Shown: piece by piece, positions 1-19,090 of the stretch
How the letters are laid out: each line of letters begins with the position of its first letter
Position numbering within the stretch: position 1 is the stretch's first letter
From: an uncultured Methanosarcinales archaeon
Lineage (GTDB): Archaea > Nanobdellota > Nanobdellia > Woesearchaeales > GW2011-AR9
Assembly: GCA_964344235.1 (NCBI GenBank)
Contig: CAYFMJ010000016.1
Span: 1 to 19,090, forward strand
Reading direction: 5' to 3'
DNA: 19,090 nt
Program-made: the position numbers and the translations under genes
Notes under the pieces: model-generated
Told to the model about the DNA's origin: nothing
Seen by the model: the letters and a program-made list of their open reading frames with translations, nothing else
Databases searched by the model: none

Positions 1-1350
1 AAATAGGTGGTGTGTTTCGTACACCCAGACCGTACGGACTCCTCCAAGCCCGTTTTCTCTGTGGGAGCGTGCTTTATTTTTCAAGGACGACTTTTCCGTT
101 GAATGCACCAATGTAATGCCAACCCCTAGTGATACATTCTTCTGCTTCATCTGCATTGACGACCCGTTGCTCGCTTCTGTTTTCCCGTTGTCAAGTTCAC
201 TTAACAACTCTTGGACTTTTGCGAGTTGTTCGGGTGTCATGTTTTCAACTTGTGCTTTTACATCTTCTTTCTTGGTTTCTATTGGGTCTTCTTCGCTTTT
301 CTCAATGTCAAGTTCTTCCTCGCATCTCTTGAAGGCTTCTTTCATTTCGCTAAGCAAATCTTGAGGAAGCATTCCTTTGTTGGTTGTGTACGTTGATTCA
401 ATCGAACCTTTGTGTCCCATAAAGAACACTCGGAAATCATGTGCTATCTTTCCTCTTGATTCAGCGATTAGAAGTCTTGTATCAAAGAAGCACCTTAGAA
501 CGTAAGGCCTCCAATTGAATCTTGGACGTATAGTTCTCCTAACCTCTCTCCTTATGATTGGTGTTGTGAGGAAAGTTTTGTTCTCGTTGTCTCCTCTTCC
601 GTACTTGTATCTGTGGTCAGGTGCAATCACAGCATCATCAGGGCCAAGTGATTCTCCTGCAAGTATTCTCTGATTGAGATATGCTAGAAGCGTCTTGCCT
701 CCTTCATTTGTTATGAAGGTGAAATATCCAAATCCGTTTTTGGACAGTTCAGTTCTTACCATTATTCTTGATGGCTTTCTGATGAAAGTAGCGATTCCCT
801 TGACAATGGAAAGGTCTGGAAGGTCTTTTATTCTCAGTCCGTCGGTTGCATCGCAGTTGCCTAGAACTTCTGGACGAAGACCTGCCTTTCCAATCAATGA
901 GATTATTGCTCTCGTCCTCGTGTCTGCAAGATTGTATAGTTCTGCAAGTTCGTCTGCCTCTGGAACTCTTTCGTCTTTTAGAGAAGGAGTTGTTGAGGAA
1001 TTTTTTACATTCAGTTTCCTAGTTATAGTTACGTCGAAGTGAGACAGCCAAGACTTTACTGTTATCTTTATTCCGTTTATGTAAGTTGGAAGTTTTCCGT
1101 CGTTTTCCATGTTCGTGATGTGATCCTGTAACAAGTCAGTAACAGTCCTTACATCTTTCATGCCTAATTCTGCTACCTGTATTGGAGTCATTTCATGTGC
1201 ATCACAGAAAGTAGATAATCTTCGTAAGTATGCGTTGGCAGTATTCTTACTTCCTCTAGCAATATTATCATACCATCTTTTTACGTCTGGGTTGGCTAAC
1301 AGACGTGCTTTTTTTGTCATCCTTGTTTGTTGTGTCTTTAACATTTGCAT
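1..1350 (-). CDS. int: Tyrosine recombinase/integrase 1 (archaeal RPYVLR-type). Absent from the ORF track because the frame runs off the left edge; probably frameshifted near its C-terminus
   Basis: Manual translation from ATG 1350 (GAGGT upstream): MQMLKTQQTRMTKKARLLANPDVKRWYDNIARGS...GKAGLRPEVLG...ELSKNG...NWRPYVLRCFFDT...FFMGHKGSIESTYTTNKG. Catalytic R, K, YxxR (in place of HxxR), H and Y are present. No stop codon between 1350 and base 1. Confidence 0.88.
   Translation of the reverse strand, partial: MQMLKTQQTRMTKKARLLANPDVKRWYDNIARGSKNTANAYLRRLSTFCDAHEMTPIQVAELGMKDVRTVTDLLQDHITNMENDGKLPTYINGIKITVKSWLSHFDVTITRKLNVKNSSTTPSLKDERVPEADELAELYNLADTRTRAIISLIGKAGLRPEVLGNCDATDGLRIKDLPDLSIVKGIATFIRKPSRIMVRTELSKNGFGYFTFITNEGGKTLLAYLNQRILAGESLGPDDAVIAPDHRYKYGRGDNENKTFLTTPIIRREVRRTIRPRFNWRPYVLRCFFDTRLLIAESRGKIAHDFRVFFMGHKGSIESTYTTNKGMLPQDLLSEMKEAFKRCEEELDIEKSEEDPIETKKEDVKAQVENMTPEQLAKVQELLSELDNGKTEASNGSSMQMKQKNVSLGVGITLVHSTEKSSLKNKARSHRENGLGGVRTVWVYETHHLF
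34..54 (+). repeat. Left attachment site core, ACGGACTCCTCCAAGCCCGTT
   Basis: Identical to 19037-19057. Internally an imperfect inverted repeat, ACGGACT-CCTCCA-AGCCCGT (6/7 arms, 6-bp asymmetric spacer). CCCAG also recurs 5 bp upstream of both copies. Confidence 0.9.
59..74. repeat. Element-side arm next to the left att core, inverted partner of 19016-19031
   Basis: The reverse complement of 59-74 (AAGCACGCTCCCACAG) matches 19016-19031 (AAGCACGTTCCCCCAG) at 14/16 positions. Each arm lies 5 bp from the 20-bp palindromic core. Confidence 0.7.
74..190 (-). other. Out-of-frame (-1) segment encoding the probable native integrase C-terminus, QRENRSEQRVVNADEAEECITRGWHYIGAFNGKVVLEK*
   Basis: Open between TGA (191-193) and TAA (74-76). 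It resembles the QxVV..E.E..I..GW.(Y/F)I....GKVVL tail I recall from this archaeal integrase family, and it stops at the att arm. Confidence 0.6.
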
Positions 1351-10934: not shown

Positions 10935-11240
10935 ATGGAATTAGAAGACGATAAGGAAAAACTGAAAAGTATTTTCCGTTGTGAATTGGATGGAAAGCGT
11001 TACTATTCAGAATCTGTCGAGTGCACTAACTGTAAAAGAATTTGTTGTCTTAACCACATCAAAAACTTTCACGACGAAGAGAAAGGATTTGATTATGCTT
11101 TATGTTCAGAGTGTTATCCCCTAAAGGAAAAAGAGATAGAAGAAAAAGAAAGAAAGGAATACATCGAGAAGGCTAAGATTATTCTCTATCTTCTTGTTGC
11201 CTTCACTGTAATTGCATTGGTGTTTAGATATGCTAGATAA
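10935..11240 (+). CDS. Cys/His-rich zinc-binding protein with a C-terminal transmembrane anchor
   Basis: C..(CTNC)..CC.NH..CSEC followed by IILYLLVAFTVIALVF. Confidence 0.7.
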   Translation: MELEDDKEKLKSIFRCELDGKRYYSESVECTNCKRICCLNHIKNFHDEEKGFDYALCSECYPLKEKEIEEKERKEYIEKAKIILYLLVAFTVIALVFRYAR

Positions 11241-12597
11241 TGTTTTCAAAAACGACATGACAAAAGCACTAGAAAAGGCAAAATGTACTCTAGTTTCAAC
11301 ATTAAATATTGCATGGAATGATGAAAATAAAGTTCTTGTAGTTATAGAAAAAAGACAAAACAGTTACGATATTCATGCAATTAGAATTTATCTTGTAGAA
11401 GATAAAATGCACAAAGTAAGTGCATCTGCAACAACTGACAAAATATCATCTCTTGGAAGCGTTCTAGCAACAAAAATACACAATGTAAGTGTCATGCAAG
11501 GTAAGGGGTCAAGAGTCAAAGACCCACATACATGTCTTGAGGTTTTGTTTACAGTTGATGAATATGAAGAAGAATCTACCCTAATGCCGATTGTTCCTAT
11601 GCAAGAACTAAACCAATATCCAACGGATGGGGGACTATTCGGATATGTCTGCGATCCTTATCTGAATCCCACAAAAACCCCACTTTACATCACGCCTGAA
11701 ATGGTCTTACATCATATCATTGTATCAGGGTCTACAGGATTTGGCAAGACATCCATTCTATTTAGAATCATTACAGAACTCAACAAAGAAAACATCACCG
11801 TATTGGTTCTCACCCCTGAGTCCCATCTACAAACATGGAAATCCTTGGCTAATTCTATTGAGATAGATGAGGAAGTAAGGGAAGGAAAAGTAAACATTCT
11901 CAACTTATCCTATGCCAATAATCTCAAAGAAGAGTCTAGCAGGATACTCAAAGAACTGATAGATAATTACTCAACTCTTGAAGAGACAAGAGGTGTAAGA
12001 CTAACACTTGTTATTGATGAGTCTGAACAGTTTGACCAAGAAAGGATAGAAGAATGTGTTAGGACGTTAAGGAAATTTGGAATCGGTGTAATAGTAGTTT
12101 CTCACAAGTTTACAGGTGATGGAGGCGTTAACGGTAGTATACGTGCCAACGTAAACACTCACATCTCTACTCAAACGGCATGGGAACCAGATATACAAGA
12201 GATGAGAAAGTACCAGCCGAAGAAAGGTTCTGATTTTGCAGGAGTTCTTCGTGTAGCACCTAGAGGATTTTGTGTGGTTAGAAGCAGTTTCCTTAACAGG
12301 GGGTTACCCACCCCCTGCAAGGTGCTTAGAGAATACGAAAAGTTACAGTATGTTGAAAGTAGTTCTTTTGATTCATTACCAAAGGTAACAGGTGACCAAA
12401 CACATGAAAGAAAACGTACGGTTCTTGATGTTATACGACGTAATGCTGGAATTACCGCCGAAGAAATAATGCTCCAACTGAAAATTCCAGAGAAAGAAAA
12501 GAGGTCATTATACCGTACGGTTAGGTATCTAGAAAATGAAAATCTCGTAATAGTAACTACGGGAGACAAGAATCGTAAACATTACACAGTAAGATAA
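11230..12597 (+). CDS. HerA/VirB4/FtsK-superfamily P-loop ATPase with a C-terminal winged helix
   Basis: HIIVSGSTGFGKT (Walker A), LVIDES (Walker B), LRKFGIGVIVVSH. The C-terminus RTVLDVIRRNAGITAEEIMLQL..SLYRTVRYLENENLV is wHTH-like. ATG 11230 overlaps the previous ORF. Confidence 0.8.
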   Translation: MLDNVFKNDMTKALEKAKCTLVSTLNIAWNDENKVLVVIEKRQNSYDIHAIRIYLVEDKMHKVSASATTDKISSLGSVLATKIHNVSVMQGKGSRVKDPHTCLEVLFTVDEYEEESTLMPIVPMQELNQYPTDGGLFGYVCDPYLNPTKTPLYITPEMVLHHIIVSGSTGFGKTSILFRIITELNKENITVLVLTPESHLQTWKSLANSIEIDEEVREGKVNILNLSYANNLKEESSRILKELIDNYSTLEETRGVRLTLVIDESEQFDQERIEECVRTLRKFGIGVIVVSHKFTGDGGVNGSIRANVNTHISTQTAWEPDIQEMRKYQPKKGSDFAGVLRVAPRGFCVVRSSFLNRGLPTPCKVLREYEKLQYVESSSFDSLPKVTGDQTHERKRTVLDVIRRNAGITAEEIMLQLKIPEKEKRSLYRTVRYLENENLVIVTTGDKNRKHYTVR

Positions 12598-13282: not shown

Positions 13283-14572
13283 TCATTTCCTCTGTGCAAC
13301 CATTATGGCGTGTTCTTTAAGAGGAGGAGAGAGGTTTGGATGTGCATTTTTCATTTGTAAAATCTCGTTAAGTTTCTCTTCTATCATTTTCTTAACAAAA
13401 TTTTCTAGAGAATCTGGTTGAGAAAACATTTGTGCTGTTGCGTTTGCATCAATAGTTCTTTGTTGTTCTATGTCCATAGGATTGTTTTCATCAAGTGGCT
13501 TTGTACATTTTTGACAAACTACTGAGGTAACACCGTTCATGTGTTCACAGTTTTTACATATCTTTGGTTTTAACAAACTTTCAACAGGTTTCTTCTCTCT
13601 TTTTATTCCATAAAATTCTAACAGAGGGTCTTCGACATCCTCACCACTAAGATGAAGATAGACTTTCCACATCTTTGAATCTCGACCCCAGCCCATGATT
13701 TGGTTCATTGTAGCAGGGTCTTTCTTAAGGATACGGTATAGTTTGGTGGCTCCGAGATGACGGAAACTATGTGGGTTTGCTCTTGCTTTTACTCCTGCAA
13801 TTTTGGCGGATCGTATTAACATCATTCTAAACTCGGCATAGTCCATTGGTTTTCCATAGTTACCACCACGAAGTTTAACAAACAGGTAGGCTTCGGGATT
13901 ATCCTTGTCAGGATGTTCAAAATTCAGATAGTTGTCAATAAACGGGGCAGAAGCAATCAATGGAATGGGCCTCTGTCCTGTTTTTCCATCTAAAAGGATC
14001 ATGTAGCCATATTTCCATTTCTTGAGATGTTTTATTTGGGGAGGGCCTATTTCTCCTATCCTGCCACGACTGTCAGCAAGTGCCATAATGAACGCTTTGT
14101 CACGGTGATATTTCTGGACTTTAACCATTTTTATAATATCTTCTTCGGTGAGATCAATCCAAGGATATTTTTTTTCGTCTCTGCTTCTAAGTTTAATCCA
14201 TTTTACACAGTCTGGATATTCTTCTCCTCCATTAAGCCACTTGTAGAACTTCTTTGTTCCAACTTTGTAATGATACTTTGTTGCTTCTGCACATTTGTAC
14301 AGTTCTATCGTTTTTACAAGTTCTTTTATGTCTCTCTTGCTTGCTTTTCTAAAATCTTTTTTCATCCACTTTCCGACTTTCAATAAACTGAATGCATGTC
14401 TTGTTGTTGTAGGAAAAGCAAGTGGACTTCCGTGTCCTGCTCCGTCAATCCTACAGTCATCTAAGAAGTCTAGTATTAACTTCCTGTTTTGTTTTGTAAT
14501 CTCATCGTTTTTCTCGATGAGTTTTCGTGCACCCTCCAAACGTTTTTCATAGTTGTAGATGTCTCTTTTCAT
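13283..14572 (-). CDS. int: Tyrosine recombinase/integrase 2 (Xer-like archaeal family with a C-terminal Zn ribbon)
   Basis: DIYNYEKRL N-terminus, RGRIGE, DGKTGQR, PHSFRH, IMGW, KVYLHL, then CKNC..CQKC. GGAGGT RBS at 14579-14584. Confidence 0.9.
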   Translation of the reverse strand: MKRDIYNYEKRLEGARKLIEKNDEITKQNRKLILDFLDDCRIDGAGHGSPLAFPTTTRHAFSLLKVGKWMKKDFRKASKRDIKELVKTIELYKCAEATKYHYKVGTKKFYKWLNGGEEYPDCVKWIKLRSRDEKKYPWIDLTEEDIIKMVKVQKYHRDKAFIMALADSRGRIGEIGPPQIKHLKKWKYGYMILLDGKTGQRPIPLIASAPFIDNYLNFEHPDKDNPEAYLFVKLRGGNYGKPMDYAEFRMMLIRSAKIAGVKARANPHSFRHLGATKLYRILKKDPATMNQIMGWGRDSKMWKVYLHLSGEDVEDPLLEFYGIKREKKPVESLLKPKICKNCEHMNGVTSVVCQKCTKPLDENNPMDIEQQRTIDANATAQMFSQPDSLENFVKKMIEEKLNEILQMKNAHPNLSPPLKEHAIMVAQRK

Positions 14573-14586
14573 AACACTACCTCCGA

Positions 14587-14872
14587 CCGTACGGAATTAC
14601 TTTTTAGTAGTCCTATTGATTACTTGTATTCGCTTTCCTAAAAACAAAACCCGTACGGTTGTTCCGTACGGTGACATTTCGTTAATTCAGAAGGTTAGTA
14701 CACCAAACTTGAGTATTGGTGGACCGGCCGAACATTCTATGTTAAGTTCACCTTACTGACATAGTACGGTTTTGTTTTTTACGACGAAACCAATAGGCCG
14801 TACTGTTTCCGTACGGTCTTTCTAAGTAATTTATTGAATGAGAAAGGATTTATGTTTGAAACCGTACGGTTT
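14587..14872. repeat. Array of CCGTACGG palindromes upstream of integrase 2
   Basis: Perfect copies at 14587, 14651, 14664, 14809 and 14862 (the last inside the 14-bp palindrome AAACCGTACGGTTT); degenerate copies at 14762 and 14798. Confidence 0.85.
14717..14730 (-). other. 14-bp fragment CGGCCGGTCCACCA matching an archaeal tRNA-Ala 3' end; putative att core for integrase 2
   Basis: Reads as T-stem 3' bases, acceptor 3' strand CCGGTCC (with the U70 alanine determinant), A73 and CCA. No other tRNA arms are present. It sits inside the palindrome array. The match is from memory of archaeal tRNA-Ala sequences. Confidence 0.65.
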
Positions 14873-14881
14873 TCAAGAATT

Positions 14882-15759: not shown

Positions 15760-17361
15760 TTGGAATACCACTGGATAGAATGGGAAGATTACGACAGCGT
15801 AGAGCAAAAATCTAGAAGAAAATGTGTTATTCTTGAGAAGGAAGTAGTTTTTGATGAACAGAAAATCAAACTATCAAATATTACAATTTCAGAGTTTGCA
15901 GTTTACGGTTTATCTGATATTCAAAAACAGAATGTTGAGAGTTGGATAAAAAAATGGAAAGAAAGAGGTGGTAAATGGAAATGGTATGATCGTCCCAAAC
16001 CCGATATCAAAATTTTGGATAATGATGAACTTCTTTTGCAAATTGAAACGCTTTTCACAAATGAACCAAATCATGAGAAAGGTTTCTACTCTTACTACGG
16101 CATTGGCATACTAAAGAGTAAATTCACAGAGGAAGAGTTCCAGAAGATGATTCCAAAGAGTGCATTAAGAACTTTTAGAGAGTATGATATAACAGACACT
16201 AAGTGGCGTAAACTACCAACACACGACTCAAGCAAACGTCAAGGTTTTCTTGGTTTCATAGTCGACGACAATCTTGAGATGACACACTATCCTGTTTTGT
16301 TCAACTTTGATGAGTTTGCACATACTCACATGTTTCTTTCTGGAATGACAGGTAGTGGAAAAAGCATAACAGGTTTTGACATAGCAGAAGAAGCGTTAGA
16401 TAACAGTATCCCTGTTTTGGTTCTGGATTACTATGGAACATGGACAGGTTTTCTTGAACCTTGTAATGACAAGAATCTTTTGAAAAATTATTTTGTATTT
16501 GGAATGGGAAAACCAAAATCATACGAAGGAGCAATATACACTCCGTCATCAGATGTTGGTAAACCGCTAAACATGAATCTGTTAGCAAAACCACCGACTG
16601 ATGACCAAAGCAAACTACAACAATTCGCTATAGAAGCATCTTTAATTATACAACAGTTCTGCGATCTTACCAAAGACGAAAGACTTGCAGTAAGAGCGTG
16701 TATATTTGAAAAATGGAAAGAAGGGCAAGACCTCAACTACAAAACCATTGCCGATGTTGTTGGAAATGACAAGACTAAGATGAGACTTGAGGAATTACTG
16801 GCAGTCTCTTACCTCTTTGAAGGGGAAAGACCAAAGATTAATGACCTGTGGAAAGATGGAGAGATTTCTGTAATTTCGTTCGATGAAATGCGTTCAGAAA
16901 AAGCAGAGATGTTCACTGCGTACTACGTACTTCGAGAGTTGGTAAACTGGTCTGATTCACTACCAGATTCTCCAAATAAAATCAATCTTTTAGTCGTAGT
17001 GGAAGAAGCCCACAAGTTTACCGAGAAAAATGTATGGGCCATGATGGATACGGCAGTAAAAACACTGAGAAAGAAAGGTATCGGATTGCTTTTCATCACA
17101 ACAGGAATTACAGATCTTGAAGGCATTAGAGGAAATACAAACTTCAAGACGTACATGAAAACGGAATATGATAACGATATTGATAGGATTGGCAGAGATA
17201 TTGGAGATTACAAATCACTTATGAAAATTTTGCCTGCTGGAATGGGGATTATCAAATATCCTGACTTTGGAATACCTGTGATAACACAATTCAGACCATG
17301 TTATCATAGACCAACAAAACTTACTACTGAAGAGATAAGAGAGAAGACGCATAATGAATAG
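15760..17361 (+). CDS. Second HerA/VirB4-like (DUF87-type) P-loop ATPase
   Basis: HMFLSGMTGSGKS, IPVLVLDYYG, LVVVEEAHKF, TLRKKGIG. Colinear motifs with 11230-12597. TTG start uncertain. Confidence 0.82.
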   Translation: MEYHWIEWEDYDSVEQKSRRKCVILEKEVVFDEQKIKLSNITISEFAVYGLSDIQKQNVESWIKKWKERGGKWKWYDRPKPDIKILDNDELLLQIETLFTNEPNHEKGFYSYYGIGILKSKFTEEEFQKMIPKSALRTFREYDITDTKWRKLPTHDSSKRQGFLGFIVDDNLEMTHYPVLFNFDEFAHTHMFLSGMTGSGKSITGFDIAEEALDNSIPVLVLDYYGTWTGFLEPCNDKNLLKNYFVFGMGKPKSYEGAIYTPSSDVGKPLNMNLLAKPPTDDQSKLQQFAIEASLIIQQFCDLTKDERLAVRACIFEKWKEGQDLNYKTIADVVGNDKTKMRLEELLAVSYLFEGERPKINDLWKDGEISVISFDEMRSEKAEMFTAYYVLRELVNWSDSLPDSPNKINLLVVVEEAHKFTEKNVWAMMDTAVKTLRKKGIGLLFITTGITDLEGIRGNTNFKTYMKTEYDNDIDRIGRDIGDYKSLMKILPAGMGIIKYPDFGIPVITQFRPCYHRPTKLTTEEIREKTHNE

Positions 17362-19015: not shown

Positions 19016-19031
19016 AAGCACGTTCCCCCAG
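19016..19031. repeat. Element-side arm next to the right att core, inverted partner of 59-74
   Basis: AAGCACGTTCCCCCAG, 14/16 match to the reverse complement of 59-74. Confidence 0.7.
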
Positions 19032-19036
19032 TCTCG

Positions 19037-19057
19037 ACGGACTCCTCCAAGCCCGTT
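19037..19057 (+). repeat. Right attachment site core, ACGGACTCCTCCAAGCCCGTT
   Basis: Identical to 34-54. Confidence 0.9.
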
Positions 19058-19090
19058 AAAAATAAAGATCTTAAAGATTATAGTTTATAC

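Follow-up and report, generated by a model that had tools for sequence, protein, structure and literature searches.

A conserved site region, intact in seven elements, upstream of an internal tyrosine recombinase gene in a family of integrative elements of ammonia-oxidizing archaea

The int2 locus

The subject of this work is the 19,090-nt contig CAYFMJ010000016.1 (C16), the whole of which was analyzed and is called the window here, and in particular the intergenic region upstream of int2, one of two recombinase genes in the integrated element that the contig carries. An earlier note on this DNA, made without database searches, had proposed two recombination systems, and the element does encode two tyrosine-type recombinases: Int1, at the left end of the window, and Int2, well inside it. 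The features discussed below are collected in Table 1.

Int2 is recognized as a tyrosine recombinase by its Phage_integrase fold (PF00589, E 1.2e-10) and by the catalytic R..K..HxxR..H/W..Y series. The residues R171, K197, H268, R271, W295 and Y305, together with four cysteines, are invariant in Int2 and 22 homologues. The best relative of solved structure is the XerA of P. abyssi (4a8e, E 8e-6), and Int2 is no orthologue of XerA, with 55.4 bits in NF040815 against a cut-off of 220.

The 309-bp gap between int2 and a 53-amino-acid open reading frame (ORF) holds a core with an arm on either side. At the core lies the GC-rich 14-mer CGGCCGGTCCACCA, which ends 144 nt upstream of the int2 ATG and overlaps the left arm of a short dyad. 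As the earlier note had seen, the 14-mer stands without other tRNA arms; a search of the window for tRNA genes with ARAGORN and Rfam gave none. Within the window the 14-mer is unique at up to two mismatches, and within the whole genome bin at up to one, and the lack of a second copy, first noticed for the window, extends for the 14-mer and the dyad alike to the bin and the proxy host genomes. Around the core stand copies of CCGTACGG, a perfect 8-bp palindrome that occurs seven times in the window, where shuffles give an expectation of 0.01. Five copies fall within 14587-14869 (starts 14587, 14651, 14664, 14809 and 14862), with degenerate copies at 14765-14770 and 14798-14803; the remaining full copies are at 30-37 and 12513-12520. 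The palindromes on both sides of the core and the inverted pair of A-tracts that accompanies them (14641-14656 and 14764-14778) are as originally described. A covarying dyad core with CCGTACGG and A-tract arms on either side, found in seven elements, is the organization of an attachment (att) site of the attP type, and the proposal of an unrecombined, two-armed, attP-like site upstream of int2 has stood up well.

Table 1. Features of the window (positions in the 19,090-nt stretch)
Feature	Position	Strand	Remarks
int2	13283..14572	-	429-aa tyrosine recombinase with C-terminal zinc ribbon and tail
Int2-associated recombination-site region	14573..14881	-	intergenic; core and two arms
14-mer CGGCCGGTCCACCA	14717..14730	-	GC-rich acceptor-like 7-mer, A, CCA; left half of core
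Dyad core	14698..14724		6-bp arms 14698-14703 and 14719-14724 (left arm, overlapping the 14-mer); 15-nt spacer
Int-proximal arm	14641..14671		A-tract and CCGTACGG at 14651-14658 and 14664-14671
Distal arm	14764..14869		inverted A-tract with GTACGG (14764-14778), CCGTAC (14798-14803), CCGTACGG at 14809-14816 and 14862-14869
Innermost CCGTACGG and int2 Shine-Dalgarno	14579..14594	-	abutting; 14587-14594 and 14579-14584
FtsK/HerA-like ATPase	11212..12597	+	C-terminal winged helix; Pfam AAA_22, DUF87, TrwB_AAD_bind; backbone neighbor of int2
HerA-like ATPase	15760..17361	+	PF01935, PF05872; backbone neighbor on the other side of the site
int1	1..1350	-	divergent tyrosine-type integrase; frame runs through left att site
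Left att copy	18..54	+	direct repeat D3; perfect 21-nt core 34-54
Right att copy	19021..19057	+	imperfect direct repeat; perfect 21-nt core 19037-19057

The wider family of Int2

More than 500 relatives of Int2 are found in archaeal genomes. The family targets the 3' ends of tRNAs, as the earlier note had said of integrases in general, and its att sites stand immediately before int on the strand of the gene. In one set of 80 loci, 9 have a tRNA gene on the strand of int, 40-175 nt before it; in a second set of 41, 26 have one on that strand at 40-95 nt upstream, which brings the tRNA-adjacent int genes to 35/121 loci. The second att copy could be located 12-58 kb downstream in five integrated relatives. 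In four of the five, the repeat measures 15-20 nt and consists of the terminal 14-17 nt of the tRNA with 0-3 further nt; in the fifth it is 23 nt long and stops before the tRNA 3' end, and it may instead be a second copy of the tRNA gene. Upstream of the window int2, ARAGORN and Rfam find no tRNA gene at 40-95 nt. When representatives were searched for more members of the Int2 subfamily, none turned up: one cluster stood at 68% identity and all others at 41% or less.

The relatives integrated at tRNA genes (L100-L124) also have a conserved GTTTAAW-N-CCC box about 10 nt past the tRNA end, which probably serves as the promoter of int and is carried on the side of attL that belongs to the element.

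A module kept across related elements

Seven sites were compared: those of the window, L006, L007, L088, L098 (from the Nitrosopumilales genome G317), L146 and L147. The Int2 proteins of these elements are 40-100% identical to that of the window, and each gene is preceded by the same region, with both arms present at 7/7 sites and every site intact. Between the window and L006, the two arms are 87% and 91.5% identical, including a 57-nt block at 100%, while the int2 gene is at 75% and the central 90 nt at 69%; the arms are thus better conserved than the gene and the center less so. In a contig from another sequencing run, only the central 95 nt were exchanged. The dyad has 6-bp arms and a spacer of 15-16 nt across the sites. 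In the alignment of the seven, 76.8% of its cells are paired, four pairs showing compensatory change; a single one of 500 shuffles equals this pairing, and slid controls are far lower. The dyad of Nitrosotenuis cloacae is poor. At all seven sites CCA and a purine preceding it are kept, and the GC-rich 7-mer before them varies. The earlier note had taken the 14-mer for an att core. Since the att cores of the family lie at tRNA 3' ends, in the same place and on the same strand, this pointer was right in place, strand and kind of sequence, but the 14-mer as such is not conserved among the seven elements.

The neighborhood is kept as well. The HerA-like ATPase gene on one side of the site is syntenic in L006, L007, L088, L146, L147 and L155, and the FtsK-like ATPase gene lies on the other side, beyond int2. 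In the complete genome of N. cloacae, the edge of the element is formed by an Int1 homologue (59-62% identical), directly next to an intron-bearing tRNA gene. About 15 kb further in, a HerA gene and an FtsK-like ATPase operon enclose an Int2 homologue (44-46%), with the CCGTAC-array region upstream of it intact. The three elements with known ends (window, G317:C25 and N. cloacae) all have the Int1-type gene at the junction and Int2 in the interior. L007 has a second recombinase-like gene of a different kind. HerA, the site, Int2 and the FtsK-like ATPase make up a backbone module that is conserved across this family of elements from ammonia-oxidizing archaea. Within it, the region upstream of int2 is very probably the cognate site of Int2.

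This conservation bears on the thought that the 14-mer is a meaningless GC patch, or else the scar of an old integration or cointegrate beside a decaying int2. The individual matches to tRNA genes, which we come to below, are non-significant, and the poor dyad of N. cloacae would also suit such a view. However, the architecture is kept across Int2 proteins of 40-68% identity, the arms are under more constraint than the gene beside them, the dyad covaries, the int2 reading frame is intact in all copies with the catalytic residues in place, and there is no partner copy to make an attL or attR. The conservation largely refutes this reading, which we consider barely credible. The suggestion in the earlier note that the element is a cointegrate of two elements, and the allied one that the site is an attL or attR, were rejected because no partner copy exists. 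Nor is the site a spare peculiar to this element: it belongs to a conserved backbone and is intact in 7/7 elements.

The palindrome CCGTACGG is not confined to the site. The 3' end of the FtsK-like ATPase gene, which encodes the winged-helix part, has CCGTACGG at 12513 and CGTACG at 12415 in the window, and CGTACG recurs in this 3' end in four elements, with two each in the window, L006 (9781, 9880), L146 (6094, 6417) and L147 (3729, 3985), these coordinates being of CGTACG or CCGTACGG. G317, in which the site is kept and the ATPase operon is missing, has three CCGTACGG downstream of int2 (L155 8198, 8565 and 8981), where the ATPase gene would stand, and the G317-type element has one copy in its Int1-type att arm. 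A CCGTACGG lies 1-2 nt before the GGAGG Shine-Dalgarno of int2 in five elements, namely the window, L006, L098, L146 and L147.

Such a distribution could also mean that the region has no use in recombination, the CCGTACGG array being an operator or loading region for a DNA-binding protein of the element and the dyad an operator or hairpin of int2. One candidate binder would be the winged helix of the FtsK-like ATPase, much as TraB reads the 8-bp repeats of clt, a precedent from Streptomyces (PMC4447253). A palindrome at the ribosome-binding site of int2 in five elements, its perfect symmetry, which is unlike the usual arm sites, the copies in the ATPase gene, downstream of the G317 int2 and in the Int1-type arm, and FtsK-like ATPases on both sides of the site all fit. 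It is harder to see from this angle why the region always accompanies an intact recombinase gene, why a tRNA-end-like half-site typical of Int2-family att cores stands at its center, and why, between constant arms, this center has diverged in step with Int2; moreover, the clt repeats are direct rather than palindromic, and G317 has the site without the ATPase operon. We judge this explanation to be quite improbable.

Just past the distal arm lies a hot spot of cargo, with the breakpoint between the window and L006 at about 14825-14866. L006 has 2.6 kb extra at this point (L006:4905-7517), with DUF5655 and other genes, G317 has an AbiE toxin-antitoxin pair (L155:10994-12567), the window has small ORFs, and L146 and L147 have nothing. 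The 103-aa ORFs of the window and L006 proved to be unrelated.

The likeness to tRNA-Ala and the search for a partner

The left half of the core has the form of a tRNA 3' end, with N7-purine-CCA in the left arm at 7/7 sites, and in the window and L007 it takes the shape GTCC-A-CCA, the signature of tRNA-Ala. This likeness is the basis of a reading in which Int2 would insert the excised element at a tRNA 3' end, here that of tRNA-Ala, as a second target beside that of Int1; the core common to both partners would be the stretch of acceptor strand plus CCA, with the CCGTACGG arrays as arm sites. The habit of the family and the geometry (att directly upstream of int, cores of 15-20 nt) fit well, and so does a two-armed site. 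In 98/101 Nitrosopumilaceae genomes a tRNA gene has CCGGTCC and then A at its end, as tRNA-Ala(GGC) does in G317 and N. cloacae, and in a few tRNA-Ala(CGC) genes of Nitrosopumilaceae, which have CCA encoded, 12 nt agree with the left arm of the window. No Int2 gene was found beside these 12-nt-matching tRNA-Ala(CGC) genes, however.

The comparison with host tRNA-Ala 3' ends suggested in the earlier note went against its expectation: the 14-mer is not the end of any tRNA in the bin, in N. cloacae or in the proxy host G317, and no relative was found with a junction there. The longest match between the center of the window site and the tRNA ends of G317 is 9 nt, with tRNA-Ala(GGC); it covers the acceptor strand, the discriminator and one more base, and is non-significant, being equaled by 89 of 500 shuffles. 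The tRNA-Ala(GGC) of N. cloacae shares 9 nt as well. The N. cloacae site has 9 nt of the end of its own tRNA-Ala(TGC), which can be counted in favor of tRNA insertion (84 of 500 shuffles do as well), and the site of G317 has 8 nt of the end of its own tRNA-Asp (260/500). The likeness of the window site to tRNA ends stops before the T-stem, unlike the true cores of the family, which include a part of it, and the 7-mer varies among close relatives.

Tyrosine recombinases require identity in the region of exchange. If exchange takes place in the dyad spacer, the expected position, none of the tRNA genes seen is a competent partner, and the tRNA-Ala trailers seen do not match this spacer. If it takes place inside the 9-nt identity, tRNA-Ala(GGC) could be the partner; thaumarchaeal att sites are reported down to 8 bp (PMC6563490). 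As a side observation, an N. cloacae locus (L224, G001:C1:663374-663463) holds a 90-nt tRNA with a long variable arm, called GAA (Phe) by ARAGORN, whose 3' part has 10 nt in common with the dyad spacer of the window (equaled by 6 of 500 shuffles, in one of four tests).

The search for a partner attB, that is, a second copy of the core or dyad, found none in G000, G317 or G001. Across 401 Nitrosopumilales genomes, a scan for the core pattern gave two matches, both by chance, and a scan for the arm motif (15-mer, one mismatch) stayed at control level, with neither a CCGTACGG array nor Int2 at its nine candidate places. The proximal-arm pattern had four chance matches, in GC-rich DNA, in a metagenome scan, and none in a viral one. 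(The tallies of the arm-motif scan, the 98/101 genomes and the tRNA-Ala(CGC) genes include the unpublished genomes G261, G269, G846 and G847, from which no cited locus comes.) The contigs of sequencing runs gave one close relative and a variant of the L006 type, with no joints to other DNA, which is no evidence of absence. No recombined junction (attL or attR) was seen at the Int2 site, 0/7 sites being split in what is a small sample.

Taken with these points, insertion at tRNA-Ala stays unproven, and we regard the use of the site for a second tRNA target as possible but rather unlikely. In a broader version, the Int2 module would be an integration system that is portable and can be re-targeted; its half-core would mimic a tRNA 3' end (7-mer, discriminator and CCA) and could be rewritten for different tRNAs, with alanine the current choice. 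We hold this to be doubtful; if true, it would give thaumarchaeal elements a second, switchable landing site besides that of Int1.

Int1, the present insertion and its host

Int1 is 74% identical to the Int1 of G317:C25 and 59-62% to the integrase that abuts a tRNA in N. cloacae. Pfam gives no match. Since hhalign finds no relation between Int1 and the Int2 family, its identity as a recombinase rests on weaker leads, namely a weak N-terminal match to XerA/PHROG_1 and ESM Atlas scores of 0.98-0.99 against Phage_integrase clusters. A phmmer search of the PDB returned TAL-effector repeats through one 34-residue stretch (Int1 residues 33-66, window 1153-1254); no stretch is significant alone, the match is probably spurious, and it was treated as such. 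The frame of Int1 crosses its own att core in the window, in N. cloacae and in G317 (window 1-200; L089:2635-2900; L155:1-100), so integration alters the C-terminal tail of the protein. The tails of the window and N. cloacae are similar at the protein level, and in the latter the tail overlaps the tRNA 3' end. The earlier note had assigned the present insertion to Int1, and the position of the gene beside the terminal direct repeats (18-54 and 19021-19057) supports the association.

The same element is present in a public assembly with 72 nt more at either end, and these flanks occur in none of the other contigs of the bin. In G317, both flanks adjoin each other in one contiguous locus. On the left, positions 1-54 of the window plus the 72 nt outside are identical at 126/126 positions to G317:C25:15131-15256, and on the right, the core plus flank matches G317:C25:15236-15361 at 124/126. 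To the right of this insertion locus G317 has cyclophilin and PfkB genes, the latter 73% identical to a chromosomal gene of N. cloacae and absent from the DPANN bin; to the left is a related element with Int1 (74% identical), Int2 (42%) and HerA. Because the flanks match one contiguous locus with a related element at its left, the window element is placed in a Nitrosopumilales chromosome, inserted at the right-hand att site of an element like that of G317, and the two form a tandem array. What lies left of the attL of the window corresponds to the right end of the G317-like element (window 1-54 with L091:1-72; L155:15131-15361), so that a single att site holds two related elements head to tail, and it is at the att copies that the contig breaks.

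The contig comes from a 1.19-Mb bin of the DPANN type, and its GC content of 34.5% differs from the roughly 40% of the remainder of the bin. The closest relatives of both Int1 and Int2 are in Thaumarchaeota. C16 was most likely put into the DPANN bin by mistake. The reassignment to Nitrosopumilales changes the reading of every finding on the contig; its cargo of Argonaute (pAgo), restriction and protease genes, for example, is to be read as thaumarchaeal and not as DPANN.

The target of Int1 in G317 and the window is not a tRNA; it consists of a GC island of about 50 nt within AT-rich DNA. The attB (L155:15190-15270) equals window 1-54 joined to 19058-19090. It may be a small RNA gene, because on its minus strand a TATA-like box lies upstream and a run of seven T downstream; the element brings a replacement for the 3' part of the island, with a T7 run of its own.

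What Int2 may do at its site

It is worth pointing out that the site of Int2 has several properties expected of a resolution site: it is intact in every copy compared, it lies beside its own recombinase gene, and another enzyme carries out the integration. Intactness at 7/7 sites, a separate junction integrase in 3/3 elements, the symmetry of the dyad, the likely autoregulation and the tandem arrays together favor recombination between two copies of the site, through which Int2 would monomerize circles or arrays. We put this forward tentatively, as our preferred reading and at somewhat less than an even chance.

In the mechanism that we envisage, the 300 bp upstream of int2 would be the intact recombination site of Int2. 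Its left half-site was probably inherited from an attP for a tRNA 3' end, because the relatives of Int2 integrate at such ends. The core is flanked by bent A-tracts and by CCGTACGG palindromes that would bind a dimeric protein, and since one palindrome sits on the ribosome-binding site of int2, occupancy of the site probably throttles the gene. Insertion into the chromosome would be left to the terminal Int1. We infer that Int2 would act on multimers of the excised circle, or on arrays of elements in tandem, and turn them into single units, and it would not insert the element into tRNA-Ala. The window element stands in tandem with a related one, so arrays in need of resolution do occur.

Several points weigh against recombination between two copies of the site. 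Accessory sites on two sides are typical of an integrative attP, and at the resolution sites cer, psi, res and the IRS of Tn4430 they stand on a single side. The relatives of Int2 are integrases and not resolvases. Seven sites make a small sample, and integration by Int2 in up to about one third of the copies would still fit 0/7 split sites. The geometry of 6-bp arms and a 15-16-nt spacer is also odd for the core of a tyrosine recombinase.

Comparison with known systems

The mobile elements of ammonia-oxidizing archaea are known almost solely from genome annotation. We found no description in the literature of this two-recombinase type of element or of the CCGTACGG site, and a survey of thaumarchaeal integrated elements makes no mention of either. 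The type recurs with a clear division between one recombinase at the chromosomal junction and another in the interior with an elaborate, conserved site. It offers a testable system for archaeal integration versus monomerization, or for target switching, and the way in which tyrosine recombinases change their specificity might be learned from its constant arms and the variable, tRNA-end-like core between them. The parts are of known kinds.

For Int1 alone, the closest parallel is with the integrases of the SSV1 type, which also have att within the int frame. The likeness drawn here is one of att placement, and in Int1 the att lies in the extreme 3' tail, so that the catalytic domain is not split by integration. 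The Int2 module resembles the lambda-type attP and the tRNA integrases of thaumarchaeal integrated mobile genetic elements (PMC6563490) in having a recombinase beside a core flanked by repeated motifs and bent DNA, with family members at tRNA 3' ends and short att cores. Here, however, a perfect 8-bp palindrome serves as the flanking motif, no recombined form of the site was seen, the other integrase holds the chromosomal junction, and the identity to host tRNAs is at most 9-12 nt.

The module resembles TraB/clt of the conjugative plasmids of Streptomyces (PMC4447253) in its FtsK-like ATPase, which has a winged helix at the C-terminus, and in its clusters of 8-bp repeats, part of which fall within the 3' end of the gene for the ATPase. 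Unlike the clt repeats, CCGTACGG is palindromic and most copies flank a recombinase core; binding by the ATPase is putative, and one related element is without the ATPase.

The systems that resolve multimers, namely Cre/loxP of P1, XerCD at cer/psi, XerA/dif and TnpI/IRS of Tn4430, likewise have a recombinase beside its own dyad site, which is always intact, with integration or replication supplied separately and the recombinase gene probably autoregulated through the site. Int2 differs from XerA in not being its orthologue (55 bits against the cut-off of 220), and its site differs from those of the whole group in having accessory sites on two sides and another geometry of arms and spacer.

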